A stretch of 45,201 nt of DNA from Escherichia phage PC2. The stretch lies in sequence record NC_073088; one strand, written 5' to 3'. Below the pieces are notes generated by a model that saw only the letters and a program-made list of their open reading frames with translations, was not told the origin of the DNA and made no database searches. Shown piece after piece: positions 6,048-44,976 of the stretch. A program made the position numbers and the translations under genes. Position 1 is the first letter of the stretch. Every line of letters begins with the position of its first letter.

Positions 6048-6519
6048 GCAAAAAGATAGCTGGCGCACGCCGCCAGCTTTATTTAAACCGCTGCGCCGAA
6101 AGTACCGATTCCGTTATGACATGGCGGCGAGCGATGCCAACCACCTGCTACCGCGTTACTTCACGGCGGAGCACAGCGCGCTAGATGTGGACTGGTCAGA
6201 GTTGAAAGGGTGGAAGTGGTGCAACCCACCGTATTCCGATCCGCTGCCGTGGGTCGAGTGCGCAGCGCATGGACGTCGGACCGTCATGCTACTGAATCAG
6301 GATACGTCGACTAAGTGGGCGAAACTGGCCCGGAAGACTGCAAACCTGATAATTCTTCTGGACTGGCGTATCCGATTTATTCACGCTGTAACTGGTGAAG
6401 TCGGGCCTAGCAATAACAAGTGCCAGCAATTGATAATCTTCGACGAAGCGCTACCCTTCGGCGGCGCACAAATTGAAATAATGAGCGAAGGAGAACTCCT
6501 TGAATATCTTAATCGTTGA
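6034..6519 (+). CDS. Phage Dam-like DNA N6-adenine methyltransferase
   Basis: 161 aa; WRTPPALF...DMAASDANHL...WCNPPYSD (NPPY catalytic motif), typical of phage orphan Dam methylases. Confidence 0.75.
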   Translation: MRKSEQKDSWRTPPALFKPLRRKYRFRYDMAASDANHLLPRYFTAEHSALDVDWSELKGWKWCNPPYSDPLPWVECAAHGRRTVMLLNQDTSTKWAKLARKTANLIILLDWRIRFIHAVTGEVGPSNNKCQQLIIFDEALPFGGAQIEIMSEGELLEYLNR

Positions 6520-7850: not shown

Positions 7851-8426
7851 ATGTACGGCGAATATGAAATAACCGGTAAACAATTCCACCTGGCGGCAAT
7901 GATTGCAAGCATCGAGTTTGAACAGTGGCGCTTAAAGTCTGACGCGTGCAAGCAAAGCAGACTCGTCGGTGTGCTGGGCGAAATGTTTGCGGGCATGTAC
8001 CTCGAAGGGCAGGCGGGCGGTCGTAGCTGTATCCCACAAGGCTTGCTTATGCGTACCGGCCTGTTTAGCGCTAACACTATCGACCGCGGCGATATTATCA
8101 TGGTTGGCAAGCGCAAGGTTAAGTCCGGTCCTGATTTCCGCGAGCATACGATCGATGCCGTATGGACATACGAGGTTAAAGCCACCAGCGGCATCCGTCG
8201 CGGACTGGTAGAGGCCCGTTGCGCTCGCGAGTATCTGACCCGTCGCGTTGCCGGTGTTATCCTGGTGGGCGTAGATTTCGGACAACATAGCGCGCACGGT
8301 GTGATTGAGGATATAGCAGAGCCATACGTGATCGTGAACGACTGGCCTTTAGTGGAAGTTGACGGTAAGGAATACTACGAAAGCCCGCTGGTGCGGCGCA
8401 AAATGGATTGGGAAAACTCAAACTAA
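7851..8426 (+). CDS. Hypothetical protein (possible PD-(D/E)xK-like nuclease)
   Basis: 191 aa; RBS GAGGG; weak D...E.K pattern (GDIIMVGKRK...WTYEVKAT); followed by a bidirectional terminator. Confidence 0.45.
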   Translation: MYGEYEITGKQFHLAAMIASIEFEQWRLKSDACKQSRLVGVLGEMFAGMYLEGQAGGRSCIPQGLLMRTGLFSANTIDRGDIIMVGKRKVKSGPDFREHTIDAVWTYEVKATSGIRRGLVEARCAREYLTRRVAGVILVGVDFGQHSAHGVIEDIAEPYVIVNDWPLVEVDGKEYYESPLVRRKMDWENSN

Positions 8427-8457
8427 AAAAAAAAGGGGCCATAATGGCCCCTTCTCG
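8425..8457. terminator. Bidirectional intrinsic terminator between the convergent plus arm and the tail fibre gene
   Basis: GGGGCC-ATAAT-GGCCCC flanked by A10 on plus (T10 on minus). Confidence 0.8.
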
Positions 8458-11187: not shown

Positions 11188-12153
11188 ATGGGCGCTGGAA
11201 TACTTATCGACTATAACGACGGCAGGCCGGTAATGGAGATAACCGCGGGACTCCGCGCTCCGTCATACTGCACCAGCTTTAACCAGCGGGCACAGTCCAA
11301 CAAGACGCTAACCATTAACACCCCGCTTACGGAGGGGTCACAGGTCGTCGTCGCGCTCACTCGCCCGGTAGAGGTGATTGAAGTGTTCGACCAGACCCTG
11401 GTAATACCTGATCCGTTTTACGTTACGTCGGTTACTCGCAACGGTAATAGTGGTATCACCCTGCGCGGGGATGATGCGTATGGCGCGTACTCAGGTTTAC
11501 CACAATGGGCGGGCGTAATAATGGAAGTGCTGCCGGTTGGGTCGCGCAACGCGGGCTTGCTGGTGGCGAACTCGACTGACTTCACGGCAATATCCAACGT
11601 GGCAAAGCTGATGACCTGCCGATACGCGAAGCGTGTGCGCGTCAACGGGAGTATGACCTTGCCAGTTAGCGGTGTCCCGTTCGCCCGCTGGGATGACGGC
11701 AATGTATCAGTAGGCTTCGATGGCGGCAGTATTATCGTCCGCAACGCGTCCTATGGTGGTATCGACGATGTGGCGGCTTCGGTGGACATGGACCTTGTAA
11801 TATTCAACAACACGCCACCCACTCCGGGGGCGGGTATCACCATGACGAACAACCAGAATCAGGTCACGTTCTCGACCGTGAACAAGCCGTTCGTATATGA
11901 CCGCACTATTAACCTCGGAACGGGCGACCAGAATATTGGAAACAGCCTGATCCAGCTTTCATACACCGGCGCGCTGATTCAGAACAACGGAGGCTATAAC
12001 CACGTCCGCATGAACGGTATTCGCATGGCGGGTAATAATGTGCGTGTTGCCAAAAACCGCGTCATCGGCAACTACTCGCGGCAGCAATTCCAGATGCCAG
12101 GTAAAAATATTGCAGTACCAACACCGCTACTCGTCATCCCGAATATGTATTGA
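11188..12153 (+). CDS. Beta-rich, Asn/Gly/Thr-rich protein of unknown function (candidate receptor-binding or exclusion-associated protein)
   Basis: 321 aa; start ATG after GGGAG RBS, 2 nt after the lipoprotein stop; fibre-like composition; followed by a GGGGCC hairpin. Confidence 0.5.
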   Translation: MGAGILIDYNDGRPVMEITAGLRAPSYCTSFNQRAQSNKTLTINTPLTEGSQVVVALTRPVEVIEVFDQTLVIPDPFYVTSVTRNGNSGITLRGDDAYGAYSGLPQWAGVIMEVLPVGSRNAGLLVANSTDFTAISNVAKLMTCRYAKRVRVNGSMTLPVSGVPFARWDDGNVSVGFDGGSIIVRNASYGGIDDVAASVDMDLVIFNNTPPTPGAGITMTNNQNQVTFSTVNKPFVYDRTINLGTGDQNIGNSLIQLSYTGALIQNNGGYNHVRMNGIRMAGNNVRVAKNRVIGNYSRQQFQMPGKNIAVPTPLLVIPNMY

Positions 12154-15100: not shown

Positions 15101-15627
15101 TCATATAGCGACATTGTTTTACCAACGGCGGCGAATCTGAACTCACGCGGGTCGGCGTTATCCGTATACACAACGATCTTATAGTCGATGCGCCCGCCCA
15201 CCAGGTCGCCGTTATCTTCGTTAGTGTACAGGGCCGGAATGCCGATGCGAATGCGAACGGCGTCCAGACTGGTATCGTTAATCTGGCGCACCCACGGCGT
15301 GCCGTTTTCCAGTTTTACGCCGACAGATTGCTCACTTTCCACCGCTGAAAATCCGTGGATCACATCCTGGTGCTGTGTTCCTGGGCGGAACTCCACACGC
15401 GCCCCAGGGAAGTTTTCAGACAGGTCTGCATTCTGGATCGGTGTTCCGTCCAGATATACGCGCCGCCGTAATTCGTTAGGGTCTGGAATACCTTCGAACT
15501 CACCTTCTCCCAGCGCAAGCAAGATGCGGATTTTAGCCAGAGAATGCAGGCTATCGGGTGTCTCCTGTGGGGTGTGCTGTTTGCCACCGCCGCCTTTATG
15601 ACCCGTGACGTCGTAAATAATCGTCAT
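12181..15627 (-). CDS. Tail tip / central tail fibre protein, lambda J-like
   Basis: 1148 aa; N-terminus ...GGGGKQHTPQETPDSLHSLAKIRILLALGEGEFEG resembles the lambda J N-terminus; follows I-K-L-M. Confidence 0.9.
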   Translation of the reverse strand: MTIIYDVTGHKGGGGKQHTPQETPDSLHSLAKIRILLALGEGEFEGIPDPNELRRRVYLDGTPIQNADLSENFPGARVEFRPGTQHQDVIHGFSAVESEQSVGVKLENGTPWVRQINDTSLDAVRIRIGIPALYTNEDNGDLVGGRIDYKIVVYTDNADPREFRFAAVGKTMSLYERDHRIELPPNVNTGWRVEVHRITADSTSAKVVNDIRVQSITEIIDARLRYPLTALLFVEFDAKAFQNIPRVSIKCKGRKVLIPNNYDPINHTYSGDWDGTFKRAWTDNPAWHWYDICITERFGLGRRIKPQMLNRYALYQIAQRCDQLVSDGNGGREIRFKNDMYIQSQTDAWTVLKDLAAIFAGMTWWGNQMLNIVSDQPVAAVSHTITNASVIDGRFDYASGSQKTRYSTFAVAYGNPKNHYDDAIATGQRVELVRRHKINRLDITAIGCTRESEAQRRGHWALISNQLDQQVSFKVGMEGLFFIPGSVVAIADTNISGGFETRGGRLLSDPGTRTVLNTDSEITFRQGDKFLVRTDSGNVETREIASVNGNKVTLKTALDADPIPDQPFCVDGNDIQLQKFRITDLEYDDSTSTFSVRGIEYNDSKYDAVDNGARLDPGIFTQVPDGVMKGPESVTITPSQISSQGQLITNVDIVFPPVKDAVVYEIQWRRTSLQNMEIQWGNDWVNIPHTASNGAHIPNVFSGNYQARVRAIGMGEISSPWVSSAITPIEGRLGGLNAPIITNAISGLHQILWKWNHNNAATDISYTELEVRKTGETEWKFLSNVPYPGAEYAQTSLEFGIYQQLRARVADKIGNLSDWSAPFEGQVSDKVDEYMKGLDNEFLTSEDGKHFQEAINTIPQGIYESMLTDAQQLFNARAEYKGIYAEITVAYNVAADAHKAVAQLETLIGTRLDDAEASIHTLQTAQSTHEQAFAQYQQTVAAKFSEQEAAIQQVQTATADVAGALAEYKTQVAAQFGQQSAAIEQKMTSSFNHAGGSATYSLKAGVTYNGTYYDAGMQLSVVTSGNAVKSRIAFKADQFYIMHPSNGSLSSAFIVDGGQVYIDTARIKDASINFAQITDTLQSNNFASGSRGWRIQKGGAAEFNEVTVRGNLYATSGNFGFSGGTVTIDETGVNVPLPGGGRVKVGTW

Positions 15628-17763: not shown

Positions 17764-18416
17764 CTTACGAATCCAATAGCAGTCTTAAGGGTGGCGGATA
17801 CGGTTGCCGTGAGGTGTCCGTTGTCCGTGTACGACAAGCTCGAACGCTCGACCACGAATAAACCTGTTTCGCCATCCGGCGCGGTGACGACAAACGGCTT
17901 GACGAAGTGCCCGCGAAGGAAGTTGTAAACCAGTTTAGGGTTGCACCACTTGTCAGTAGTCAGTCCTATGAATTGCACGGGGAACTGTTTAGTTTCGGCG
18001 TTCGGGCCGTCCGCGATGTTCTGCCCGTAGCCATTACCGAATTGCAATTCCTCGGACCGGAAAGCTAACTGCACGTCGCCACCGCCCTGCAATTGCATGT
18101 GCCAGTAATAGGGCCATTCGTTTGATCGCGGGTCGTGTGCTTCGATTAGCTCATATGCCGCACCGGATTTCGTTGGCCCAGCCCAGTTATCTTTCAGGGT
18201 AATGACCGTGTTAGAGTTGAATGCCGCAATTTTGCCGGTGTAGTCGTTGCCGTCGATGCGGGCGAATACGAGTACCTTCCCGATCTCGCTAAGGAACGCC
18301 GTTCCCGCGCCAGTGACGGTCTTACTTCCTTTCGTTAGTGTGATTGTACCTTGTGACATAAAAAGCCCCCACGTTGTAGTGAGGGCCATTTTATCATCGT
18401 TTGTAAAGTACACCAC
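17760..18416 (-). CDS. Minor tail protein, lambda M-like
   Basis: Position directly after the tape-measure gene; overlaps it by 23 nt. Confidence 0.7.
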   Translation of the reverse strand: MVYFTNDDKMALTTTWGLFMSQGTITLTKGSKTVTGAGTAFLSEIGKVLVFARIDGNDYTGKIAAFNSNTVITLKDNWAGPTKSGAAYELIEAHDPRSNEWPYYWHMQLQGGGDVQLAFRSEELQFGNGYGQNIADGPNAETKQFPVQFIGLTTDKWCNPKLVYNFLRGHFVKPFVVTAPDGETGLFVVERSSLSYTDNGHLTATVSATLKTAIGFVR

Positions 18417-21036
18417 CCGGTTTCGTCGCCTTCACGATCTCGGCCTTCACCGCCTCGGTGATTTGCTTGCCGAACGCCTGCGCGGTACGTGGGTCCGTCC
18501 CGCCAACACTGGTATCCGTCTTACCGGTCCCCGTGTAAACGTTAGTCGTCACGACCATACCACCGCCTGCGCCAGACGCGGCAACGCCCAGTTTCCCGTC
18601 CGGCCCGCGCTTCAGTGGCATGATGGCCTCGGGTCCAGCCTCACCCATCAACCCAGCGCCCTTAGCGAACGCCTGGACGCCATAACTGAAAAAGGTGGGC
18701 TGGCTTACCACCTGACCCGAATATGCCGCGAGATTGCCCCCTGCGAACGCTCCGCCGTCTGCATTCTTAGTGAGGCCCGAGAAGATAGCGCCGAACAATC
18801 CGTTTTTGCCGCCGTCACCACCGAAAGAGCTAACGATCGACTTGAACGCCTGCGAGGTAGCCAGCTTGATTAACTCGCTCAGGATGGATTTGACCATATC
18901 CTTCGCGTTAATCTTGCCCGTCTCGAAAAACTCGTTCATCGTGTCTTGCATAGCGCTGAATGTAAATTTCGTGAGCGACGCCATCTGCGTATATCCGTTA
19001 CCCATTTCATCCACGCTATCCTTAAGCCCGCGACTGAATCCATCCCATAGCGAGGCGTTAGCCCCGGTCTGCGCCTCCTGCACTTCCCGCAGCTTAGACA
19101 CCGCCTTGTCAATATCGGTATCGTTAGCGCCCACACGCTTCAGGCGGTCGATTAGCTGCAATTCTTCACGCAGGTTTGCCGCTTCTCGAGTGGAAAGCGC
19201 ATAGCCCGCGGCGGTGGCTTTTAGTTCGGCGTTCTGGTTCTTAACGAAGGCATCGATCTGCGCGTGCGCCTTAATCTGCTTCTCTTTCGCGTCCAGCAAT
19301 TTGGCTTCTTCGACGATCTGCTCGCGCACTTCCTTCACGCGTCCGAATTCGACCATCTGCTGCTTTTCTGCTGCCGTTAGCGCTCTTTCTTTGCTCGCAG
19401 CGATTAACTGCTCATTGTCGGCGATCAGCTTGTTTAAGGCCGCTTGAGCGCGTTGCGTGCGGGTCTGCGTAGACGCGTTGGCTTCGATCTGCTTGCCGGA
19501 TTCTCGAAGCTGGGCCAGTTCGCTCCGTGCGACTTCCAGCATTTTCATACCGGCATCCACGCGAACAGCCGCGGCCTTCTTCGGGGCGGGGTCTTTGTAA
19601 CGCTCGTTTACCTGCTTCACCGCCTCGGCAAGCTCTTTCTCATCAATAACGCCGCGCTTATTCAGCAAATTGAGGCGGGCGATCTCGTCTGCACGCTTCT
19701 TCGCGTTGGTTGCGTACTCCTTCTCGAACGCAGCGCGGTCGCGGGCGGTGCGGTTAGCCTCCTCGTTCGCCTTTGCGGATTCGTCTGCGGCGCGGGCGTT
19801 GTCTCGCTCCGCGCGGTTACGCAGGGTGAGCGACGCCACCACTTTTTCCTGGGCGACCAGTTCGCTGTAAAGCATGTTAATACGTGCTTTCTGCGCTTCA
19901 GTCATTACCCCACCGGCAGCGTTTACCGCTTTCATCTCGGCATAGTAAGCCGTGGTCATGCGCTGTAGTGATTCGCGTGCTTTCATCTCGGACTCATTGG
20001 AGGACTGCGCGCGGCCCACATCCAGGATGGCATCCCACATTGATTTGGCTGCCGATGTGACGACGTTCATCGACCGCTCAAGCGTACCCATGTTCGCCTT
20101 GATCTCATTGGTCATGCTGGTGAACGACGCAGCGGCTGTTTTGTTAGCCAACGCAACTGCGTCTGTCTCACGACCCGCATCAACGAGCGACTGTACCTGC
20201 TGGATCTGCGCTTCGTTTACGACGTGATACTTATCCGCCAGCGCACGCAGTCCGCCTACGGGGTCGGTTGACAGCTTCGCCACCGCCGCTACCACATCCT
20301 CGATCGGCTGGCTGGACACCTTCGCAAAGTCATTAACTACCTTAGCCAATGCGCCGAAGTCACCACCCGCTTTCACACCCGCCGCCGCCAGCGCCTGGAT
20401 TGTGTCACGCGTCTTGCGAAATGACCCGCCCATGCGCTCGGCGTTCTCGGACAGCACCAGGATCTGGTTAGCGGTGAGGCCGGAGATATTACCAGACAGC
20501 GCCAGCGTCTTATTAAGCGCCGCCACCTGGTTCTCTGCGCGGGTCGTAATTGCCACGCCCACGCCTAACGTCGCCGTTAATGCCGAAAGGCCGATCCCTA
20601 CTGGGCCGAGGAAGCCCGCAACATAACGCAGCGTGTTACCAAGTCCGCCAAATGCGCCGGTTAGCTGTGGTAGCTGCTGAAGCATGACGCGGTGCACCGG
20701 CATACCCATCTCAAGCGTAACCGCAATATCCTGCAACTGGAATGCGGCGTTCCTCGATGCGAATCCCAGGTTTTTGGTAGACATGCCTAATCGGCTGGCG
20801 AGTCGCTCCTGTTTCGTCATACCATCGGCGGCACGCTGCGATTCAGTCGCTAACTTTTCCATTCCGCCAGCGGCGTCGCCAGTAACCTTTTTCGACTTGC
20901 CGAGGGTGTCGTTTAATTTCTTTACTTTCTGTTCTGTGTTCTCGGATTTCTGCGCAAATGTGTCCAGCACAGTATTAGCCGTTTTAATTTGCGCGACGTC
21001 CGCCTTGAGCGTGATGCCCGCTGCCTGATCTGCCAT
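18394..21036 (-). CDS. Tail tape measure protein
   Basis: 880 aa, largely alpha-helical Ala/Lys/Glu-rich with hydrophobic segments; RBS AAGGGGGA. Confidence 0.9.
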   Translation of the reverse strand: MADQAAGITLKADVAQIKTANTVLDTFAQKSENTEQKVKKLNDTLGKSKKVTGDAAGGMEKLATESQRAADGMTKQERLASRLGMSTKNLGFASRNAAFQLQDIAVTLEMGMPVHRVMLQQLPQLTGAFGGLGNTLRYVAGFLGPVGIGLSALTATLGVGVAITTRAENQVAALNKTLALSGNISGLTANQILVLSENAERMGGSFRKTRDTIQALAAAGVKAGGDFGALAKVVNDFAKVSSQPIEDVVAAVAKLSTDPVGGLRALADKYHVVNEAQIQQVQSLVDAGRETDAVALANKTAAASFTSMTNEIKANMGTLERSMNVVTSAAKSMWDAILDVGRAQSSNESEMKARESLQRMTTAYYAEMKAVNAAGGVMTEAQKARINMLYSELVAQEKVVASLTLRNRAERDNARAADESAKANEEANRTARDRAAFEKEYATNAKKRADEIARLNLLNKRGVIDEKELAEAVKQVNERYKDPAPKKAAAVRVDAGMKMLEVARSELAQLRESGKQIEANASTQTRTQRAQAALNKLIADNEQLIAASKERALTAAEKQQMVEFGRVKEVREQIVEEAKLLDAKEKQIKAHAQIDAFVKNQNAELKATAAGYALSTREAANLREELQLIDRLKRVGANDTDIDKAVSKLREVQEAQTGANASLWDGFSRGLKDSVDEMGNGYTQMASLTKFTFSAMQDTMNEFFETGKINAKDMVKSILSELIKLATSQAFKSIVSSFGGDGGKNGLFGAIFSGLTKNADGGAFAGGNLAAYSGQVVSQPTFFSYGVQAFAKGAGLMGEAGPEAIMPLKRGPDGKLGVAASGAGGGMVVTTNVYTGTGKTDTSVGGTDPRTAQAFGKQITEAVKAEIVKATKPGGVLYKR

Positions 21037-21104
21037 TATGCAGTCCCCCTTTTTATGCAGTTGCCGTCGGTCATTGTATCAGCGAATTTAAAACAAACCT
21101 TATT

Positions 21105-21270
21105 CAGTCTCAGACGAGGGGGGCCAATGACCCCCGTCTAGTCTGAAAGACTGGGCTTTGTCCCGCCTGTCCCGATCGGCTAAAACCAGCGGCAGCACTG
21201 GCGGGGACAGGGGTGCTGTCCCGCTTTGTCCCGACCCATTCTGTCCCGCTTTTTGTCCCGCTTACTTTAT
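21105..21270. repeat. Copy A of the 166-bp GTCCCGC-repeat / hairpin element
   Basis: Aligns block-for-block with 38166-38331; contains the perfect palindrome GCGGGACAG-GGGTG-CTGTCCCGC and six GTCCCG units. Confidence 0.85.
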
Positions 21271-21300
21271 GCACGAAAACTGAATAGATATTCACATTTT

Positions 21301-21430
21301 GGGGGCGGGACAGATCGGGACAGCACCCCTGTCCGCTTTTAATTTATGCAATGCTGGTGGGTAAATATGCAGTTTTTAAAGGTGCGGGATAGAACGGGAC
21401 AAAACGGGACGTCCCGCCTGTCCCGCTCCG
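21301..21430. repeat. Second cluster of GGGACA / GTCCCGC units adjoining copy A
   Basis: GGGCGGGACAGATCGGGACAGCACCCCTGTCCGC and GCGGGATAGAACGGGACAAAACGGGACGTCCCGCCTGTCCCGC; in inverted orientation to the copy A units, across an AT-rich spacer (about 21271-21300). Confidence 0.7.
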
Positions 21431-21754
21431 TTATGCGGGGTTCTGCCGCGCCATTTCATCCAGCGCAACGCGTTCCATTAGCTTGATATCTTTAAACGCA
21501 CGTTGCGCGTTTTCGATGCCGTGCATCTTAAATAGCCATTCCAGTACGCCATAGTCGATGCCGTATGCCCCGCCAAATCCGGTACGCCATTGCGTGGAGC
21601 AATCTGTGAAGACTGCGACTACCTTCGCGTTGTCGGGCCACAGCGCAACGGGTGGACACACGTCTTCAGGTGTCGCACCCCATAAACTCGCGGCTAAATC
21701 TTCGGAGGGTGGCGGCGGGCCATAAAAGCGTCGCGCCGCCTCAATTAGTTTTTT
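21431..21754 (-). CDS. T-like extension of the tail assembly chaperone, reached only by -1 frameshift from G (G-T fusion)
   Basis: The -1 frame stays open from the heptamer (21754-21748) to the TAA at 21433-21431 with no in-frame start near its 5' end; fused product about 229 aa. Confidence 0.75.
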   Translation of the reverse strand, partial: KKLIEAARRFYGPPPPSEDLAASLWGATPEDVCPPVALWPDNAKVVAVFTDCSTQWRTGFGGAYGIDYGVLEWLFKMHGIENAQRAFKDIKLMERVALDEMARQNPA

Positions 21755-22107: not shown

Positions 22108-22123
22108 TGTAGTATTCTCCAAT

Positions 22124-22146
22124 AAAAAAGGGGCCGTACTGGCCCC
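22124..22146 (-). terminator. Strong intrinsic terminator after the major tail protein gene
   Basis: Minus strand GGGGCC-AGTAC-GGCCCC followed by TTTTTT, just upstream of the G chaperone RBS. Confidence 0.8.
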
Positions 22147-24939: not shown

Positions 24940-24954
24940 TTCATTCACTCCTAT

Positions 24955-24978
24955 AAAAAAGGCGGGCATAAGCCCGCC
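24955..24978 (-). terminator. Strong intrinsic terminator after the major capsid gene
   Basis: Minus strand GGCGGGC-TTAT-GCCCGCC followed by TTTTTT. Confidence 0.8.
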
Positions 24979-26195: not shown

Positions 26196-26897
26196 TTACT
26201 CGTCGCCCATTTTAGCGATGATTTCACCCGCCTGTTTCGTCAGGTCGGTGATGCCAAAGCTGTGGCCCATAGTTATTTTAGACTTCGCATCCTCGACGAC
26301 CTGCGTCGGTTTGCTCGGCGCACCACCGGCTGGCGTGCCTGCCAGGACGGATGCAAAATCGGCGTTATTACGGAACTCTTTTTCAAGCTCTTCCATAGTC
26401 AGCGCGGACGGTTTGCCATCCTGCAAGACACGCACTTTTAAGCTGCCGTCTTCGCCGTCTTCCAGCGTGAGGCGGTCCATAACGTGGCGTTGCATGATGC
26501 CAGCATTCTTTCCGAATAGCTTCGATGCCAGGTCTTTGGCAGCGCTGCCGATGGTTAGATCGTGGATCTGCTTGCGGTAGGCTTCGATTTTTCCCGATGT
26601 GTCTGCTTCGTGTTTTGCAAACTTATCTTTCCAGGACTTGTCGATCGCTTCGAGGTCGCCATTTTTGCGCGCGGCGGCTTCCTCTTTCTCTTTCGCAAGG
26701 CGCTCGGCTTCGGCGCGGCGTTCAGCTTCTGCTTTCTTCTCGCTCACCAGCTTCGCGTTGTTGTCTTTCAGACCCTTGATCTCCGCCTGTACTTCTTCGG
26801 CGGTCATGAACGTGGATTTATACCCATCGCCATCAGCAACAAATAAAGCCTTCATGCCTTCTGGCAACGCGTCATATTCTGCTTTAGTAAGTTTCAT
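26196..26897 (-). CDS. Head scaffolding protein
   Basis: 233 aa from ATG 26897 (RBS GGGGGA); Ala/Glu/Lys-rich coiled-coil (KKAEAERRAEAERLAKEKEEAAARK); immediately upstream of the capsid gene. Confidence 0.55.
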   Translation of the reverse strand: MKLTKAEYDALPEGMKALFVADGDGYKSTFMTAEEVQAEIKGLKDNNAKLVSEKKAEAERRAEAERLAKEKEEAAARKNGDLEAIDKSWKDKFAKHEADTSGKIEAYRKQIHDLTIGSAAKDLASKLFGKNAGIMQRHVMDRLTLEDGEDGSLKVRVLQDGKPSALTMEELEKEFRNNADFASVLAGTPAGGAPSKPTQVVEDAKSKITMGHSFGITDLTKQAGEIIAKMGDE

Positions 26898-27420: not shown

Positions 27421-28185
27421 ATGAGACTGACAAAAGACATTAAAAATCAGATTCTGGCTAACATCCTGCGCGACCACGAAATCGCAACCGAAGCCAAACA
27501 AATCATGATGGACTCACGCGACATGGCGTACGCAATCACGCTGGACTGTATGCCGGACGGCATTCGCACATTCGCCGCGCTACGCGAGCATATCCTGTTA
27601 ATCCGCGATGACCAGTCGCAGATGTACGGCGTCAGCATATACACCAACAAGGCGACGTATAGTTATAACTCCGACCGCCCGAAGGGTATCGGCAGCGTCT
27701 ATGACGCCACCTTTGAAATCAACGCAGGCGGCAATGTTCGCACCTTGTCATTGAGCGGCGACGGTCGCCAACACCGCATACATCGCGGGTACTGGGAAGA
27801 GAAATATATGAATAAGCTCGCGCCTGATCTCGGCGATATCGTTCCGGGGTTCGAGACAGTTATGCTCGCGTCAGTGTGCGAAGTGGACGAGGACGGGAAA
27901 GCGCTGCCGATATATCTCCCACGCGGTCGCGTAGACTACCCAGCGGATCATGATTTCTGTAAGCGCCTGGACCGTAACGACCAGGCCCGCCGCGAGTTGC
28001 GCGCGAAGTATGACGCGTTCAAACTCACCGTTACCGGTGTACTTGACCTGCACAATACTGACAAGAAGCTGATTAAGGCATGGCCTGAAGTCGAGCAATT
28101 CATCCCGTACCCGGACAAGCAAAAATCCACGGCGGTGGCGCTGGATGTGAAAACACTCAACGAGATTTGCGGCATTCCGCGCTAA
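27421..28185 (+). CDS. Hypothetical protein, moron gene 2
   Basis: 254 aa; no motif recognised; followed by a hairpin at 28191-28211. Confidence 0.55.
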   Translation: MRLTKDIKNQILANILRDHEIATEAKQIMMDSRDMAYAITLDCMPDGIRTFAALREHILLIRDDQSQMYGVSIYTNKATYSYNSDRPKGIGSVYDATFEINAGGNVRTLSLSGDGRQHRIHRGYWEEKYMNKLAPDLGDIVPGFETVMLASVCEVDEDGKALPIYLPRGRVDYPADHDFCKRLDRNDQARRELRAKYDAFKLTVTGVLDLHNTDKKLIKAWPEVEQFIPYPDKQKSTAVALDVKTLNEICGIPR

Positions 28186-28190
28186 CGAAA

Positions 28191-28211
28191 AAGGGGCCAT
28201 TACGTCCCCTT
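28191..28211. terminator. Hairpin between the moron cassette and the spanin genes
   Basis: AAGGGG-N9-CCCCTT, followed on plus by GATTATTTG. Confidence 0.45.
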
Positions 28212-38006: not shown

Positions 38007-38165
38007 CCAATATTAATCACGCGTATGAAAAAGTTGATCGCTATCTGCTGTGACTGCAAACTGCATTTTTCACACCCCATTCTGCAACTCGCATTGGTTG
38101 CCTAGTTCAGCGACGACCGCGATTTACAATGTGCTGCCGTGTATTATGCAATCCCGGATTTTATG

Positions 38166-38331
38166 CAGTCTCAGACGAGGGGGTCAGTTGGCCCCCGTCT
38201 AGTCTGAAAGACTGGGAGTTGTCCCGCCTGTCCCGCTCCTCGCCAGGCCGCGTCATCCGGGGCGGGACAGGGGTGCTGTCCCGCTTTGTCCCGCCCCTGG
38301 TCTGTCCCGCTTTTTGTCCCGCTTACTTTAT
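38166..38331. repeat. Copy B of a 166-bp GTCCCGC-repeat / hairpin element
   Basis: Aligns with 21105-21270: identical blocks CAGTCTCAGACGAGGGGG, CCCCCGTCTAGTCTGAAAGACTGGG, TTGTCCCGCCTGTCCCG, GCGGGACAGGGGTGCTGTCCCGCTTTGTCCCG and CTGTCCCGCTTTTTGTCCCGCTTACTTTAT, separated by divergent spacers. Confidence 0.85.
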
Positions 38332-38372
38332 TCAGTTTTATTGCATAACTATTCACTATATTTACACTACAC

Positions 38373-38420
38373 GGCAACCAATGCGACCAGATAAAAACGC
38401 TCAAAATGGCAACCAATGCG
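38373..38420. repeat. Direct repeat of GGCAACCAATGCG (two copies, 22-bp spacer)
   Basis: Copies at 38373-38385 and 38408-38420, just downstream of the primase-helicase stop. Confidence 0.6.
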
Positions 38421-38428
38421 CGCAAAAA

Positions 38429-40693
38429 TTAATCTTTCAGGTCATCATCGGTCGCCGAAAGCGTTATGGGAATATCCGATTTGATGACCAAATTCGACGA
38501 CCCATAGATGGCCCCGGTGTGCGGATCTGTATAAAAACCAATCACGCCGCGCTCGACCATATCGTCGATTGCCTTCGTCGAAGTGCCTCCCTTAGCGAGT
38601 CCAGCCTGGCGGACAATTGCCGATTTACTGAATCCAGTGTGGTTAGGGTTATCTTCCATCAGTTTTTCCAGTGCCGCATAGAGCACTTTCTCTTTTTCGT
38701 TGCGCGGACCGGCGGTGTTCTCCTCCTTAGCTGCGGCTTTTCCCTCCGCCTTCGCCTGTTCTATAGCGAACGGTGCCAGGGCAACCGGTACGAGGTAGAG
38801 AGTCTCGTCGCGAGGTGTGGAGGCAATCGGCTTGACGTCCCAACCGGCAACCACATCCCCGAAGTCTGGCCCGGTGCTGGTGGACTGGTGCGACGCGAAC
38901 GCTTCTGACTTGCGGAGATCCACCTTCACCTTGCACTTGAGCAGGACGAAGCCACGCGGCGCTTGCTTGATACCGTTACGTGACTTTTCGTGGTACAGGT
39001 TGAGTTGTCCCGGCTGGTTGTCGTCCGGCTGTTCCAGGAAGAACGCAGAATCGACAGCACCATGCAGCGCGCCGGACCCGCGGGGGGTTCTGCTGCCGTT
39101 TGCACCTTTCGCGGGGTGGTGGATGACACCCGCACTGCCACCTGTATTTTCCGCAATGGCCTTCAGCGCTTTGACCACTTCACCCATATCGCTGGCGTTG
39201 TTCTCGTCGAACGGTTTAGCATCAGCGGACCGCAACGCAACAGTCTGGTTGAGTGAGTCGAACGCCACCAGGCCAACCGGTTCGCCGTTAGCGGTGCGGT
39301 TGATAAAGCTGATAACTTCGCGCAAGCCGGATTTGCTGGTGATATCCCAGCCGCGTGACTGCAGATCGATAATGTGCAGCTTGTCCAGGTCGTGCTCGTA
39401 TTTAATCTGCAATGCTTCTTTACGCTGGTTGGAGGCTTCACCACCTTCCGCATCGAAATAGAAGCAATGGGACTGGACGACCTTCGCACCGCCAAACGGA
39501 ATACCGGCGGCAACCGCGCCCATCTGGCCCAGCACGTAGAAAGACTTACCAATATTCGACTCACCCGCCATGTACCAGGTCGATTTGAAGTTAATCAGAC
39601 CTTCGATGATCGGGTCGTGCTTACTGAATAGTGCGACCGGCTCGTTATCCAGATCCGCATCGGTGCACACGCCGTATTCTTCGCCGTCGCCAACCGCATC
39701 AACAATATGTTCATATAAGGATTCGACTTCCTCGTCGTCCAGCCCTGGGAGGATGGCGGCAATTTGCTTACGTGACATGTTGTGCGGCTCGACGTTCAGG
39801 TGGTCCGGTATCCCGATAAGACGTAGCGCCAGGTGCTGGTGTCTATTTAGCTCCGAGCAACACTCGTTTCCGGTGTGCATACACTTGAAACGGATCTCGC
39901 CATCCTTGACCATGATAGCCGTCGACCCTTCGCCGCTGTGCAGATGTTCGTTCGGGCACGGCACTTCATAACCGCGACCAGAAGATAACTCCTCGAATCC
40001 TGCCTGGAAGCACCAGTCCAGAATACCGTCCGCCACTGCGTCGTCGCCCTGGGTAAGCTCGCGGCGTACTTCCTCTTTCTCCACCCCCAGCTTGTCCGCC
40101 AGGCGGAGCAGACGCCGCACATTAGCGCGCTTGCCGTAGTGGCACTTAATAACAGACTGCTGGTGTGGCAAGTACATAAGACGGTTTGTGTCTTTCGTGC
40201 AATCGTCGAAGTCCACATCCGACAGGCCCAGTTGGTCTAACAGCGCGTACTGCACGCGGCCCAGGTCTTCCGCCGGTACTGGTTTATCTGTGAGCACAAG
40301 GAAACGGGCGCAACGCGTGCCGCCTTTCAGCGGGTGGCGGTCGCCGGTGGTTGTGTGGAATACGTGCTCAAGCCCCGCGCCGATGAAAGCCTTGCGGCAG
40401 CGGCGTAGGGTGCGGGTGTCGGTACGGTCAATATCGAAGAACAGGATCGAGCGGTCCACCGCACTTGTCTTGCGGCGTAAGCCGTCACTGGTATACGCTA
40501 CGATGCCATCGGCCTTACGCTTGCGGCGCGCATACTCGGCTTTATCTTCCGTCTTGTTGATATGCACCGAGGAGATTTCTTTCGCATCATTGATAAATTC
40601 GAAAAATTCATCGGTGGTCATCTGGAAGTTTTCCGCCCTGGCTTTTTCGCCTTTTTTAGCGGGTCTTGTTACAGCGAATTTAATTAAGCTCAT
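38429..40693 (-). CDS. Primase-polymerase (AEP-like) fused to a P-loop helicase
   Basis: 754 aa; N-terminal DxD motif (ILFFDIDRTD), central Cys-rich zinc-binding segment (CPNEHLH...CMHTGNECC), C-terminal Walker A (MAGESNIGKSF). Confidence 0.8.
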   Translation of the reverse strand: MSLIKFAVTRPAKKGEKARAENFQMTTDEFFEFINDAKEISSVHINKTEDKAEYARRKRKADGIVAYTSDGLRRKTSAVDRSILFFDIDRTDTRTLRRCRKAFIGAGLEHVFHTTTGDRHPLKGGTRCARFLVLTDKPVPAEDLGRVQYALLDQLGLSDVDFDDCTKDTNRLMYLPHQQSVIKCHYGKRANVRRLLRLADKLGVEKEEVRRELTQGDDAVADGILDWCFQAGFEELSSGRGYEVPCPNEHLHSGEGSTAIMVKDGEIRFKCMHTGNECCSELNRHQHLALRLIGIPDHLNVEPHNMSRKQIAAILPGLDDEEVESLYEHIVDAVGDGEEYGVCTDADLDNEPVALFSKHDPIIEGLINFKSTWYMAGESNIGKSFYVLGQMGAVAAGIPFGGAKVVQSHCFYFDAEGGEASNQRKEALQIKYEHDLDKLHIIDLQSRGWDITSKSGLREVISFINRTANGEPVGLVAFDSLNQTVALRSADAKPFDENNASDMGEVVKALKAIAENTGGSAGVIHHPAKGANGSRTPRGSGALHGAVDSAFFLEQPDDNQPGQLNLYHEKSRNGIKQAPRGFVLLKCKVKVDLRKSEAFASHQSTSTGPDFGDVVAGWDVKPIASTPRDETLYLVPVALAPFAIEQAKAEGKAAAKEENTAGPRNEKEKVLYAALEKLMEDNPNHTGFSKSAIVRQAGLAKGGTSTKAIDDMVERGVIGFYTDPHTGAIYGSSNLVIKSDIPITLSATDDDLKD

Positions 40694-40703
40694 TGCCGTG
40701 GCC

Positions 40704-41033
40704 TTACTTAGAAGTTTTATTATTGCGTACCCAGGAGCGCACTGTGCTCTGATTAATTCCGGTCAACTCGGCAATCATTGCCCAGGATTTTCCCTCGGCG
40801 CGCAAACGGATAACCTGTTTTTTGTATTCTTCCATTTCTTCATTGTGCTTTTGCAGCTTGCTGGCTGCCGTACCGTTGAGCAATTCCAGCCTGGCGCGTA
40901 ATTCTTTTTCTACACTGCGCAGGCGCTCGACCTCAAATAGCACCGCCCCCACGGCATCGGTATAAGCCCATGACCGGCTTGTTTCACTGCTAACAGTCTT
41001 CGTTAACATTTCGATTGCGTCGTTTACATTCAT
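40704..41033 (-). CDS. Transcriptional regulator with C-terminal helix-turn-helix
   Basis: 109 aa; coiled-coil N-terminus; C-terminal HTH (GKSWAMIAELTGINQSTVRSWV); RBS GAGGG; first gene after promoter 41065-41093. Confidence 0.55.
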   Translation of the reverse strand: MNVNDAIEMLTKTVSSETSRSWAYTDAVGAVLFEVERLRSVEKELRARLELLNGTAASKLQKHNEEMEEYKKQVIRLRAEGKSWAMIAELTGINQSTVRSWVRNNKTSK

Positions 41034-41212: not shown

Positions 41213-41241
41213 TTGACTCCCTTCTGCAACCAATCTAATAT
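41213..41241 (+). promoter_or_regulatory. Sigma70-type promoter (TTGACT-N17-TAATAT) with upstream T/A-rich tract
   Basis: Hexamers read directly; T9 tract and AAAATTAG at 41194-41210; drives the plus arm. Confidence 0.6.
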
Positions 41242-41436: not shown

Positions 41437-41949
41437 ATGTTTGAACAAATCGTAAACCTGATTACTCGCGGCGTAGTAGCACTGGAAACCATCGCTAAGC
41501 ATTATGAAACCGTCGGCGCTGCCGTTGGTAAACAGGAAGACAAGAAGCCGTCTAAGGCTAAAAAAGAAGTTGTCGAAGATGACGACGCCGAAGACGAAGC
41601 ACCGGCGAAAACCAAAAAAGCACCGGCGAAAGGTAAGGCCAAAAAAGAAGTCGTAGAGGATGACGACGATGAAGAAGCCGAAGACGAAAAACCGGCGAAG
41701 GGTAAAAAAGCACCGGCGAAAGGCAAAGGTAAGAAAGATGCCGACCCGCTGGCAGAGATGCGCGACGAGATCAAACAGTATGCCGCGATTATCGCTGGCG
41801 GTGATGATGACGATGCGAACGACGAATTTGACGACCTGCTGGAATCGTTCGAGATCAAATCAATCGCCAAGCTGGAAGATGACGACGTGGAAGATTTCCA
41901 CAAAGATCTGAAAGAAATCGTCGAAACCTATTTCGAACTGGAAGATTAA
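41437..41949 (+). CDS. Acidic protein with alternating Lys-rich and Asp/Glu-rich repeats
   Basis: 170 aa; repeats KKEVVEDDD(A/D)E...APAKGK; first gene after a strong promoter; followed by a terminator. Confidence 0.55.
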   Translation: MFEQIVNLITRGVVALETIAKHYETVGAAVGKQEDKKPSKAKKEVVEDDDAEDEAPAKTKKAPAKGKAKKEVVEDDDDEEAEDEKPAKGKKAPAKGKGKKDADPLAEMRDEIKQYAAIIAGGDDDDANDEFDDLLESFEIKSIAKLEDDDVEDFHKDLKEIVETYFELED

Positions 41950-42249: not shown

Positions 42250-42438
42250 ATGGCTATATTCTTCGTTTTATTTCGTTGCCGTATTACCGGCGACGAGCAA
42301 CCGGAAATTGTTATGAATCAAAACTGGAATTGCTGCTGGATGCAAGCCCGAGGACTGGCGGCTACCATGAACAATGCCGCTAAGCGGGCCAATGTTGAAC
42401 ATGATTATTACATTGCTCAGTTTTCAAGGGTGGAATAA
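42250..42438 (+). CDS. Hypothetical small protein
   Basis: 62-aa ORF starting right after the upstream stop; TAATG overlap with the nuclease gene. Confidence 0.3.
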   Translation: MAIFFVLFRCRITGDEQPEIVMNQNWNCCWMQARGLAATMNNAAKRANVEHDYYIAQFSRVE

Positions 42439-43868
42439 TGGCGATTAAACCAAAACGTAAAACGCAATCCGGTAGCAATACGGAACACTCATTACTCGGA
42501 CCGTCCGGTGCTAAAAAATGGATGGGTTGCCCTGCCGCCCTGGTGGTGGAAAAAGATATCCCGAACGAATCCGGGCAAGCCGCGATTAACGGTACGAGTA
42601 TGCACACCGTATCTGAGGTGGTGCTAAACCGCATTATCGCCGGTGAGAAGCTGATAACCGCGAAGACGTATAAAGGGTGCTACGTCGAGAACGAAGGCAA
42701 GGGGCCAGTAAAGGCACACCCTAAAGCACCGAAAGGCGGCGTACTGGTCAACGACGACATGGTGAAACAGTGCGACGCGTACATCGACCACTGGCGACCG
42801 CTCCTCGAAGTGGCGGAGTTTGTCCAGCTTGAGATGCGCGCCGATCTGACCCGCGTCCTTCACTCAGGCTACGAGATCGACGGCAACAGGATTAAAACGT
42901 TCGGTACTGCCGATATGGTCATGGTCATGAAGAAGACTGACGGCACGTACATGCTTATTGTTGGCGACCTGAAGACCGGGCGGCATAAGGTCGAGGCGAA
43001 AGAAAACAAACAGCTTATGTTGTACGCGATCGGACTGCTGCGCAAGCTGCACACTATGTACGACATTACGACCGTTCGCCTGGTTATCTTCCAGCCGTAT
43101 TGCGGCGGGGCGTCGGAGTGGGATATTTCGGTAGAAGCGCTGGAGATATTCGCGAAGTTTGCATCCAAGCGCGCTATTGCCGCACTGGAGGCGTATTCCC
43201 GCGGCAAGAAGGGACTCACCCGCGCGGACTTCCGGCCCAGCGTCGATGCGTGCCAGTGGTGCCGATTTGCGGATCAGTGTAGTGCCCGCGCTAAGGCCGC
43301 AATCGACACGATGACCCCACCGACGGCAACCGACGAAGACCTGGGCGACGACGTGAGTATTGCGACAGAGGAAGAATGCGCCAACCATGCCCGCAATATG
43401 GCCCGCGAAGCGCGGAAGGCGGCACGACGAGCGAAGCGTGGTAAGAAAGAAGCAGCCCCCGGTGCTATGAGCGCTGCGGAACTGCGCAAGGCTTATGAAG
43501 GCCTGGACGCAATGCGCCAGCACATCAAGGCTATCGAGTCCGCGGTATTCAAGGCGGTCATGGCTGGCGATGGCGAATCGCTGGGCCTCAAGATGGTTGC
43601 CGGTAAGGAAGGGGTCCGTAAGTGGGCGGACGAGAGCGAAGTGATTGAAATATTCACGAAGGCCCGGATCAAGCGCGATGTGATGTACAAAGAAACATTG
43701 CTCAGTCCTACGGACGCCGAGAAGGTGCTGAAGGACGAGAAGCCGAAAGTGTGGGCTAAATTATGTGATAAAATCACGCGCGCACCGGCTAAACCGGTAT
43801 TAGCACCCATCGACGACCCGCGCCCTGCGTGGTCGGAGGCCACTGACGAGGACTTAAGCAATGAATAA
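42438..43868 (+). CDS. Cas4-like PD-(D/E)xK nuclease (DUF2800-like) with Fe-S cysteine cluster
   Basis: 476 aa; N-terminal Cys (WMGCPA), core GDLKTGRHKVEAKENKQLMLYA (QxxxY), C-terminal CQWCRFADQC. Confidence 0.7.
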   Translation: MAIKPKRKTQSGSNTEHSLLGPSGAKKWMGCPAALVVEKDIPNESGQAAINGTSMHTVSEVVLNRIIAGEKLITAKTYKGCYVENEGKGPVKAHPKAPKGGVLVNDDMVKQCDAYIDHWRPLLEVAEFVQLEMRADLTRVLHSGYEIDGNRIKTFGTADMVMVMKKTDGTYMLIVGDLKTGRHKVEAKENKQLMLYAIGLLRKLHTMYDITTVRLVIFQPYCGGASEWDISVEALEIFAKFASKRAIAALEAYSRGKKGLTRADFRPSVDACQWCRFADQCSARAKAAIDTMTPPTATDEDLGDDVSIATEEECANHARNMAREARKAARRAKRGKKEAAPGAMSAAELRKAYEGLDAMRQHIKAIESAVFKAVMAGDGESLGLKMVAGKEGVRKWADESEVIEIFTKARIKRDVMYKETLLSPTDAEKVLKDEKPKVWAKLCDKITRAPAKPVLAPIDDPRPAWSEATDEDLSNE

Positions 43869-44193: not shown

Positions 44194-44976
44194 ATGGCTA
44201 AAGTCAACCTGAAAAATGTGCGCGTATGTTTCCTGAAAATTTGGGAACGTGATACCCCTAAACAGGATGGACAAAAACCGGCATACCGTGCAGTGATTCT
44301 TCTTGATAAAGAAGATCCGCAGGTGGACAAAGTGGAAGCGGCAGCGCGCGCAGTGCTAACCGACAAGCTGAAATCCGAGAAGAACGCCGATAAGTGGATG
44401 GACCGCCACTACGCCCAGGATTCTAAGGAATGCGCTGTTCGTGACGGTGACGAGCGCGATGAAGTGACTGAAGAATTCGAAGGCATGTTGTACATCAACG
44501 CTAAATCGTTCAAACAGCCGAACATCCAAACGTCACTCGGCGAGAAGCAGACCGAACAGGGTCTGACCATCGACGGCGACGAGATTGAAGGCCAGGAGAT
44601 CTACTCCGGTTGTTATTGCAACGTGTCCCTGGATATTTGGGCGTGGAACAACACCAACGGCAAGGGACTCGGTGCTGGACTGCTGGGTTTACGCTTCCGT
44701 GATGACGGTGAAGCCTTCGGCGGTGGCGGATCTTCTTGCTCCGATGAAGACCTGGACAACGACGAAGACGAAGCACCGCGCAAGGCTAAGAAGTCAAAAC
44801 GTCGTGATGACGATGATGAAGATGATAAGCCGCGTAAGTCCAAAAAGTCCAAGCGCCGCGATGACTACGACGATGAGGAAGATGAAAAACCTCGCAAACG
44901 TCGCAAGTCCCGCGATGACGAAGATGAGGACGAAGACGACGAAGACGAAGCACCACGTAAACGTCGCCGCCGTTAA
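44194..44976 (+). CDS. Single-stranded DNA-binding protein-like (gp2.5 / DUF2815-like) with charged repeat tail
   Basis: 260 aa from ATG 44194 (RBS GAGGA); N-terminus MAKVNLKNVRV; C-terminal about 80 aa of alternating D/E-rich and PRKSKKSKRR repeats ending RKRRRR. Confidence 0.55.
   Translation: MAKVNLKNVRVCFLKIWERDTPKQDGQKPAYRAVILLDKEDPQVDKVEAAARAVLTDKLKSEKNADKWMDRHYAQDSKECAVRDGDERDEVTEEFEGMLYINAKSFKQPNIQTSLGEKQTEQGLTIDGDEIEGQEIYSGCYCNVSLDIWAWNNTNGKGLGAGLLGLRFRDDGEAFGGGGSSCSDEDLDNDEDEAPRKAKKSKRRDDDDEDDKPRKSKKSKRRDDYDDEEDEKPRKRRKSRDDEDEDEDDEDEAPRKRRRR

Follow-up and report, generated by a model that had tools for sequence, protein, structure and literature searches.

The origin oriV of the IncQ plasmid RSF1010 is composed of iterons, GC-rich and AT-rich segments and the hairpins ssiA and ssiB, and it is served by the RepA helicase, the RepB' primase and the RepC initiator. 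In P4, ori and crr reportedly consist of the same octamer repeat, lie 4.5 kb apart and are both needed, as Flensburg and Calendar in 1987 and Ziegelin and Lanka in 1995 are said to have found. The P4 alpha protein unites a primase, a helicase and a C-terminal winged-helix origin binder in one polypeptide, and the winged helix binds the origin repeats (PMC4234260). For pRN1, an essential cis element, which includes a required stem-loop, lies within 166 bp downstream of the primase-helicase gene orf904, and its authors state that similar arrangements occur in some bacteriophages (PMC4234260). In the SaPI family, the C-terminal winged helix of Rep recognises penta- or hexanucleotide iterons with lineage-specific specificity, and the origin holds six to twelve iterons directly downstream of rep, opposed to each other around an AT-rich centre (PMC9371898).

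We have analysed a window of 45.2 kb, i.e., the whole stretch of DNA from Escherichia phage PC2, in which an earlier note had pointed out a 166-bp element in two copies. BLAST searches with either copy and its flanks matched 157 phage records, nearly all from Escherichia and Shigella Dhillonviruses (HK578, SSL-2009a, JL1, SO-1 and others), and most of the matches are 80–96% identical across the whole 601-bp query. This indicates that the window is a complete Dhillonvirus genome of the HK578/SO-1 type; its orientation is opposite to that of the HK578 record. The earlier note had suggested searching related genomes for the element, and all 157 related GenBank phages do carry it, almost always at both sites (335 places), so that an assembly artefact can be dismissed. 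In the RefSeq record of Sodalis phage SO-1, the two regions are already annotated as 'repeat_region' (A, 11214-11597; B, 40178-40657), with a remark on direct, inverted and palindromic repeats and on the similarity of region A to region B. In the literature on Dhillonvirus, SO-1, HK578 and SSL-2009a, we have found no publication describing regions A and B or a replication origin. Overall, the feature is real and strongly conserved, and it had been flagged as a repeat earlier in one GenBank record.

We propose, at a rough probability of 0.6, that the two copies are arrays of iterons belonging to a phage replication origin, which would be used by the primase-helicase. Binding, melting and origin activity are inferred from what the analysis shows, i.e., the anatomy of the repeats, their conservation, the family-wide linkage of gene and array, the predicted fold and the coordinated change of the motif. 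The features concerned are as follows.

21037-21430, whole region A: the non-coding gap between the tail-chaperone (DUF1799) and tape-measure genes, with 11 CGGGACA sites in both orientations
21105-21270, copy A core: in plus-strand order, an imperfect hairpin, two GTCCCG units, a 42-bp A-specific spacer with a degenerate inverted unit, and four GTCCCG units
21105-21154, copy A hairpin: outer stem CAGTCT/AGACTG and inner stem AGACG(A)GGGG/CCCCCGTCT with a bulged A
21205-21334, inverted repeat of 33 bp (21205-21237 and 21302-21334, 91% complementary): the 64-bp spacer holds an AT-rich core and two more units
21386-21433, outlying iterons of region A: the palindrome CGGGACGTCCCG, and GTCCCGCCTGTCCCG for the third time; a third partial copy is at 21411-21433
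38166-38331, copy B core: laid out as copy A, its right end about 100 bp from the stop codon of the primase-helicase gene (38429-38431)
38166-38215, copy B hairpin: stems as in copy A, loop different
38322-38428, stretch separating copy B from the stop codon of the primase-helicase gene: AT-rich tract (about 38323-38372), two GCAACCAAT boxes
38429-40693, minus strand, gene of the proposed reader, the 754-aa primase-helicase: primase-like N-terminal region, RepA/AAA_25 core at residues 357-531, predicted winged helix near the C-terminus, acidic tail
38483-38698, minus strand, predicted winged-helix domain (about residues 666-737): H1-H2-H3 and a beta wing, pLDDT 81-88

The genes flanking both sites are on the minus strand. 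The tape-measure gene (18394-21036) and the tail-chaperone gene (21431-21661) are separated by a 394-bp gap, and copy A lies inside it. Copy B lies directly downstream of the primase-helicase gene and upstream of a block of small genes, lysis genes and terminase genes. For an origin, the position of copy A is odd, being 17 kb from the helicase gene and inside the late structural gene cluster.

Pairwise alignment and a repeat search have both recovered the two copies as direct repeats at the positions given before. The homology exceeds these ends, reaching about 21100-21295 versus 38161-38356, and it falls into three collinear stretches with a spacing of 17,060–17,061 bp, which are the longest non-coding direct repeats in the genome:

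21100-21205 versus 38161-38266, 106 nt, 79% identical
21204-21237 versus 38264-38297, 34 nt, 97% identical
21240-21295 versus 38301-38356, 56 nt, 82% identical

Coding repeats are also present, i.e., acidic, lysine-rich repeats of the GAAGACGAAGCACCGGCGAA type (42–89 nt) in two plus-strand ORFs of the early region (41565-41743 and 44742-44960). Of five blocks described as identical between the copies, four are so; the fifth, the palindrome block, differs. Its palindrome, which had been called perfect, is perfect in copy B only (GCGGGACAG-GGGTG-CTGTCCCGC, with 9-bp arms), and the left arm in copy A is CGGGGACAG, which leaves 7 bp. As a conserved hairpin the palindrome is rejected: 80% of the cells pair, two pairs are broken in more than half of the sequences, and the compensatory changes that were to be looked for are absent.

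The claim of at least six GTCCCG units per copy agrees with our count, which gives six on the plus strand in each. For the heptamer CGGGACA, we have counted 22 sites in the 45.2 kb, with 11 at 21165-21425, 7 at 38226-38321 and 4 elsewhere (about 5.5 expected). That is, 18 of the 22 sites fall in the two clusters, a signal well beyond chance, and the other four are within chance expectation. At least six short repeats clustered in non-coding DNA, as expected of a SaPI-type iteron origin, are thus found in both copies. In copy B, the iterons lie essentially on one side of the AT-rich tract with the GCAACCAAT boxes on the opposite side, and only one unit, at 38263, is inverted.

Region A, whose position corresponds to 'repeat_region A' of the SO-1 record, holds more than its 166-bp core. 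The earlier note had missed its extra units in both orientations, its 33-bp inverted repeat and its third partial copy. As the inverted repeat surrounds an AT-rich spacer, the iterons of region A face each other across an AT-rich stretch, with the units at 21218-21260 opposed to those at 21306-21321. Region A has a more complete layout of iterons, AT-rich DNA and inverted iterons than region B. The GC-skew profile was also considered as evidence for an origin and is uninformative, since the skew follows gene orientation.

Both copies are further flanked by TTATGCA/TGCATAA heptamers (21036-21065, 21267-21273, 21344-21350, 38144-38173 and 38335-38349). On the gene-proximal side they form direct pairs 17 bp apart, and in copy B of most relatives they make a palindrome, TTATGCA-N7-TGCATAA. 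We have dropped the idea that this motif is a DnaA box, with 6 of 9 positions matching by eye.

To describe the variation of the element, we have aligned 30 copies from 17 genomes, 13 of which supply both copies (the window and 28 IMG/VR loci). In these copies, the six GTCCCG cores are invariant or nearly so and the spacers vary, with a central 26-bp spacer that is either A-specific or B-specific. Between orthologous A copies there are indels of one nucleotide (alignment columns 90, 118 and 149), and the ORFs overlapping the copies (21110-21295 and 38171-38425, both on the minus strand) keep no common frame. The single-nucleotide indels among orthologues rule out a coding reading, and a protein-coding element, whose reading frame would have to be preserved, is rejected. 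The earlier suggestion of selection on protein-binding sites or on structure, and not on a frame, is borne out by the invariance of the cores and of the hairpin stems, by the variable loop and spacers and by the 1-nt indels.

Outside the A- or B-specific spacer, A and B share 37 polymorphic columns with 5 fixed differences, and the A–B distance within a genome (0.094) is no larger than that between orthologues (0.107–0.110). From the shared polymorphisms and the small distance, the two copies exchange sequence and evolve in concert. Such frequent exchange might also be read as the mark of a recombination or mobile cassette, like the T4-type promoter–stem-loop cassettes, or of a pac signal, duplicated and without a role in replication, and the chaperone–tape-measure gap of Edwardsiella phage eiAU does hold an inserted opposite-strand ORF. 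We regard this as very improbable, because any functional site that is repeated should show exchange between its copies, both copies keep their position and layout in every relative with no extra copies, and neither copy adjoins the terminase genes. For the pac signal in particular, headful packaging has been reported by PhageTerm for Dhillonvirus Opt-212 (PMC9022532), which counts against it.

The hairpin beside each array is the other invariant part. All of its 15 pairs are unchanged among 29 distinct sequences, and its 7–8 nt loop is hypervariable, with more than 10 forms. By DNA folding, the copy A hairpin has −13.7 kcal/mol and z = −3.7; the z-scores range from −3.0 to −3.8, and the two strands fold with the same stability, as a palindrome in DNA would. 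Since all pairs are invariant, no covariation could be scored in the main hairpin among these 29 sequences.

These observations bear on whether the element acts as a minus-strand RNA, i.e., an RNase III-type processing site, a stabiliser or, once in each transcription unit, an antitermination RNA of the HK022 put kind. Both copies are oriented as their flanking genes, the stems are invariant with a loop free to vary, the folding z-scores are low, and the bulged hairpin GACGGGGG..CCCCTCGTC recurs upstream of the eiAU tape-measure gene. Against this, an Rfam 15 scan of the whole window gives zero matches at the gathering score, covariation offers no help with stems that never vary, and the equal stability of the two strands does not single out an RNA. 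Besides, the orientation of the unit in eiAU is reversed with respect to the hairpin, as fits a site in duplex DNA and not an RNA motif, and the six repeated units and the link to the helicase gene would be left unexplained. An RNA element is therefore improbable in our judgement.

The more specific proposal of a minus-strand terminator or processing module finds no support: no U-run follows either hairpin, and a consensus scan finds no minus-strand terminator within either copy. That is, the hairpin is not a terminator. The sole terminator-like match near the copies is on the plus strand at 21318-21334, outside the 166-bp core. It is a hairpin, GGACAG-CACCC-CTGTCC then GCTTTTAATT, opposed to the direction of the flanking genes, and it is itself an inverted iteron pair. 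The real terminators of the genome, four hairpins consisting of an A-run and GGGGCC-loop-GGCCCC (T9) on the minus strand, are unlike those of the element:

8426-8451, minus strand, strong rho-independent terminator
22121-22146, minus strand, same terminator family
24953-24978, minus strand, same terminator family
28184-28209, minus strand, same terminator family

The evidence that ties the arrays to a particular protein comes from two independent scans of viral loci. In a motif-first scan, viral contigs were searched for GTCCCG arrays of at least 5 units per 250 bp, which gave 32 loci in genomes of 47–74% GC. In 13 of these 32 otherwise unrelated loci, a gene homologous to that of the primase-helicase has its 3' end at the CGGGACA array or shortly before it; ten of the 13 homologues are detected by BLAST, with 24–29% identity in the helicase core. 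Since the motif-only scan was noisy, with many matches in coding repeats or tandem arrays, a protein-first scan was added, in which 80 loci were collected from the protein alignment alone. Of these, 54 loci of distant homologues extend 400 bp or more beyond the stop codon. Within these 400 bp, some heptamer is present four or more times at 78% of the 54 loci, versus 4% of control windows inside the gene or upstream, and with at least 5 repeats the proportions are 69% and 0%. The heptamers are lineage-specific (CGGGACA, CGGACAA, TCCGACA, CGTGACA, GGGGGAGA, AATCGTA, ATGTGAA, ACGGAAG and others). In PC2, copy B has this place directly downstream of the helicase gene, and copy A lies 17 kb away. 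Kagunavirus K1H has no array after its primase gene.

Many of the metagenomic CGGGACA arrays after helicase genes (L042, L077, L124, L128, L132, L138 and L139) are symmetric around a palindrome of a G-run and a C-run, e.g., GGGACACACCCCTATAGGGGTGTCCC, so a central GC-rich hairpin seems to recur in these putative origins. One unrelated viral contig, IMGVR_UViG_3300042874_000221, carries 24 TGTCCCG/CGGGACA units at 6122-6400 in a tandem array of ATGTCCCGGGACAAATCGGGAC, with no helicase homologue within its 4-kb flanks.

The family-wide link also bears on the possibility that the arrays bind a transcription regulator of the phage and mark operon boundaries, copy B between early replication and late genes and copy A between the chaperone and tape-measure genes, where they would set the timing or level of downstream expression. 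Both copies do lie in intergenic gaps of one long minus-strand gene cluster, other regulatory-looking motifs (GCAACCAAT and TTATGCA) surround them, and HTH proteins are encoded in the genome. The HK578 record, moreover, annotates a rho-independent terminator on the minus strand, just upstream of region A, whose position is that of the iteron palindrome (about 21399-21416). This reading, both for the binding of a regulator and for the control of expression, is nevertheless rather unlikely. There is no sigma-70-like promoter in or beside copy A, the lone match near copy B takes the hypervariable loop as its −35 element, and it is the helicase gene that goes with the arrays throughout the family, in genomes which are otherwise unrelated and lack the local HTH protein. 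Promoter and terminator consensus scans around the two copies gave no conserved site. Homologues of that neighbouring HTH protein (40704-41033) are confined to Dhillonvirus loci and hence cannot explain the family-wide pattern of gene and array, so we have rejected it as the common reader. An array bound by the helicase could still affect (late) transcription as a side effect.

A separate motif, GCAACCAA(T), probably serves a phage regulator as its operator. We have counted about 21 sites on both strands versus about 1.4 expected, with sites at 2554, 5511, 5528, 7181, 7200, 10908, 27008, 27022, 34852, 37425, 37972, 38003, 38101, 38374, 38409, 41226, 44114 and 44130. These are often in or beside sigma-70-like promoters, e.g., TTGACT-N8-GCAACCAA-tc-TAATAT at 41226, and two of the boxes flank copy B. 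In eiAU the same box (GCAACCAAC) is present 23 times, 13 of them in its two repeat regions.

For the origin reading, the protein itself is informative. In the primase-helicase, Pfam detects AAA_25 (RepA-type) only, with no D5 or Toprim domain, and PHROGs assigns it to the 'replicative helicase-primase' phrog_3228. When it is aligned with its eiAU and Otaku homologues, four parts can be told apart: a primase-like region at the N-terminus, which is conserved and has a Cys/His cluster; the helicase core; a C-terminal domain that varies; and an acidic tail (...DDDLKD), again conserved. This tail (..ATDDDLKD, 38432-38455, minus strand) is common to homologues of about 45% identity and recalls the polymerase-binding tails of T7 gp4 and gp2.5. 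We have modelled residues 575-754 by AlphaFold (whole-fragment pTM 0.43), and the top Foldseek matches of the model are all winged-helix domains (MarR/MepR, Rio2-wH, histone H1 and ORC wH), individually weak at E values of 0.02–0.7. Lineages that have different heptamers also differ at the start of the putative recognition helix:

GGT-STKAI, heptamer GCGGGACA
SRRRS, heptamer CGGACAA
RRPA, heptamer TCCGACA
RYKI, heptamer GGGGGAGA
YSDA, heptamer TTCCGCACA

Two clades that are 68% identical overall and have GCGGGACA in common show a similar start of this helix. The earlier idea that the primase protein binds the repeat fits these data; the likely reader within it would be the predicted C-terminal winged helix and not the N-terminal domain that had been put forward for a binding test. 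On the other side, the helicases of the distant metagenomic CGGGACA loci have a different family of C-terminal tail, without detectable similarity to that of PC2 (two tail families; hhalign probability 0.5%). Hence, a shared recognition domain does not explain the shared heptamer and is rejected as its cause; convergence or a limited motif space may account for it.

More distant relatives show how the element changes. In eiAU, the primase-helicase is 47% identical with a diverged tail, and large non-coding gaps exist at the same two positions, both with CGCCCCG-type units and sharing a 52-bp block (88% identity, E = 8e-10). Thus, the motif has changed at both sites together, as would be expected if one reader had co-evolved with both. 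In front of the tape-measure gene, the gap holds the bulged hairpin GACGGGGG..CCCCTCGTC, Dhillonvirus-like, relative to which the eiAU repeat unit is inverted. An opposite-strand ORF is annotated in this chaperone–tape-measure gap (42365-42718), so the gap tolerates inserted genes. In Serratia phage Otaku, the primase gene is followed by four TTCCGCACA units, with a single inverted pair at a distance of 11 kb. At both Otaku sites (15380-15440 and 26270-26400), a long GC-rich stem is bracketed by TTATGCT../..AGCATA, resembling the TTATGCA brackets around the Dhillonvirus element. Salmonella phage TS6 has one array only.

Based on the above analyses, the iteron-type origin is clearly favoured among the three candidate roles raised earlier (origin, binding array for a regulator, and terminator or processing module), owing to the family-wide linkage of helicase and array, the predicted winged helix and the layout of region A. 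In such an origin, the primase-helicase would bind double-stranded GTCCCG(C)/CGGGACA units at 9–12 bp spacing, probably via its C-terminal winged helix, assemble on the array, open the adjacent AT-rich DNA, load itself and prime synthesis. Copy B, directly 3' of the presumed initiator gene, is at the position typical of the family. Copy A, between the tail-chaperone and tape-measure genes, is a duplicate that would serve either as another origin or, like P4 crr, as an enhancer acting in cis from a distance. By each array, the invariant bulged hairpin may be a structure-specific loading or priming site.

A further thought is that the two arrays are one bipartite control element, in which primase-helicase complexes at 21.2 kb and 38.2 kb would pair or loop the intervening 17 kb, as in P4 ori–crr or plasmid handcuffing. 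We hold this as doubtful; if it were so, the pairing would set the replication timing and gate the read-through into the tape-measure and tail genes.

Dhillonviruses are common coliphages that are used in phage therapy and in defence-system studies. If the arrays are origins, they would provide a defined cis element for engineering, and a cloned origin could be used as a decoy against infection. They would also open a way to study how replication begins in a virulent siphovirus without the DnaA or DnaC of the host. With the family-wide rule that a helicase gene has its own heptamer array behind it, origins in many uncultured phages are predicted directly from sequence. A helicase family with lineage-specific heptamers after the stop codon would, in addition, give hundreds of protein–DNA pairs for a recognition code of the winged helix.

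Compared with the described systems, the PC2 locus resembles each of them in part. As in pRN1, the putative origin lies downstream of a gene for a multifunctional primase-helicase, whereas the pRN1 element is without iterons and its protein is of the prim-pol/SF3 type of archaeal origin. RSF1010 RepA belongs to the same Pfam family as the PC2 helicase (a weak sequence match, PDB 1g8y), and oriV likewise combines iterons, an AT-rich segment and conserved hairpins, by analogy with which the PC2 hairpin may be a primase start site. The iterons of RSF1010, however, are 20 bp versus 7–8 bp in PC2, and a separate RepC-like initiator was not identified in PC2. P4 ori and crr are alike in placing the same short repeat at two separated cis sites, which are 17,061 bp apart in PC2, and P4 alpha resembles the PC2 protein in joining primase, helicase and a C-terminal winged helix (predicted in PC2) in a single chain. 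They differ in that no sequence relationship was found and that the spacing is 17 kb versus 4.5 kb; P4 alpha combines a Toprim primase with a D5/SF3 helicase, and Pfam finds AAA_25 only in the PC2 protein.

The SaPI/PICI Rep (Pri-Rep)/ori systems are alike in the position of copy B and in the layout of region A. SaPI Rep, on the other hand, is of the AAA+ type while the PC2 helicase core is a RecA-type RepA/AAA_25, and comparison of the PC2 helicase with SaPI Rep gives no PDB sequence match even at E ≤ 1. Also unlike SaPIs, PC2 is a virulent 45-kb siphovirus with its own DNA polymerase and two arrays, of which copy B has its units mainly on one side. By this analogy, the element appears to work like the SaPI Rep/ori family and is not a member of it. 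Most probably, therefore, this is a known kind of origin, and what is unusual is its duplication, with the second copy kept in the tail gene cluster across two genera.
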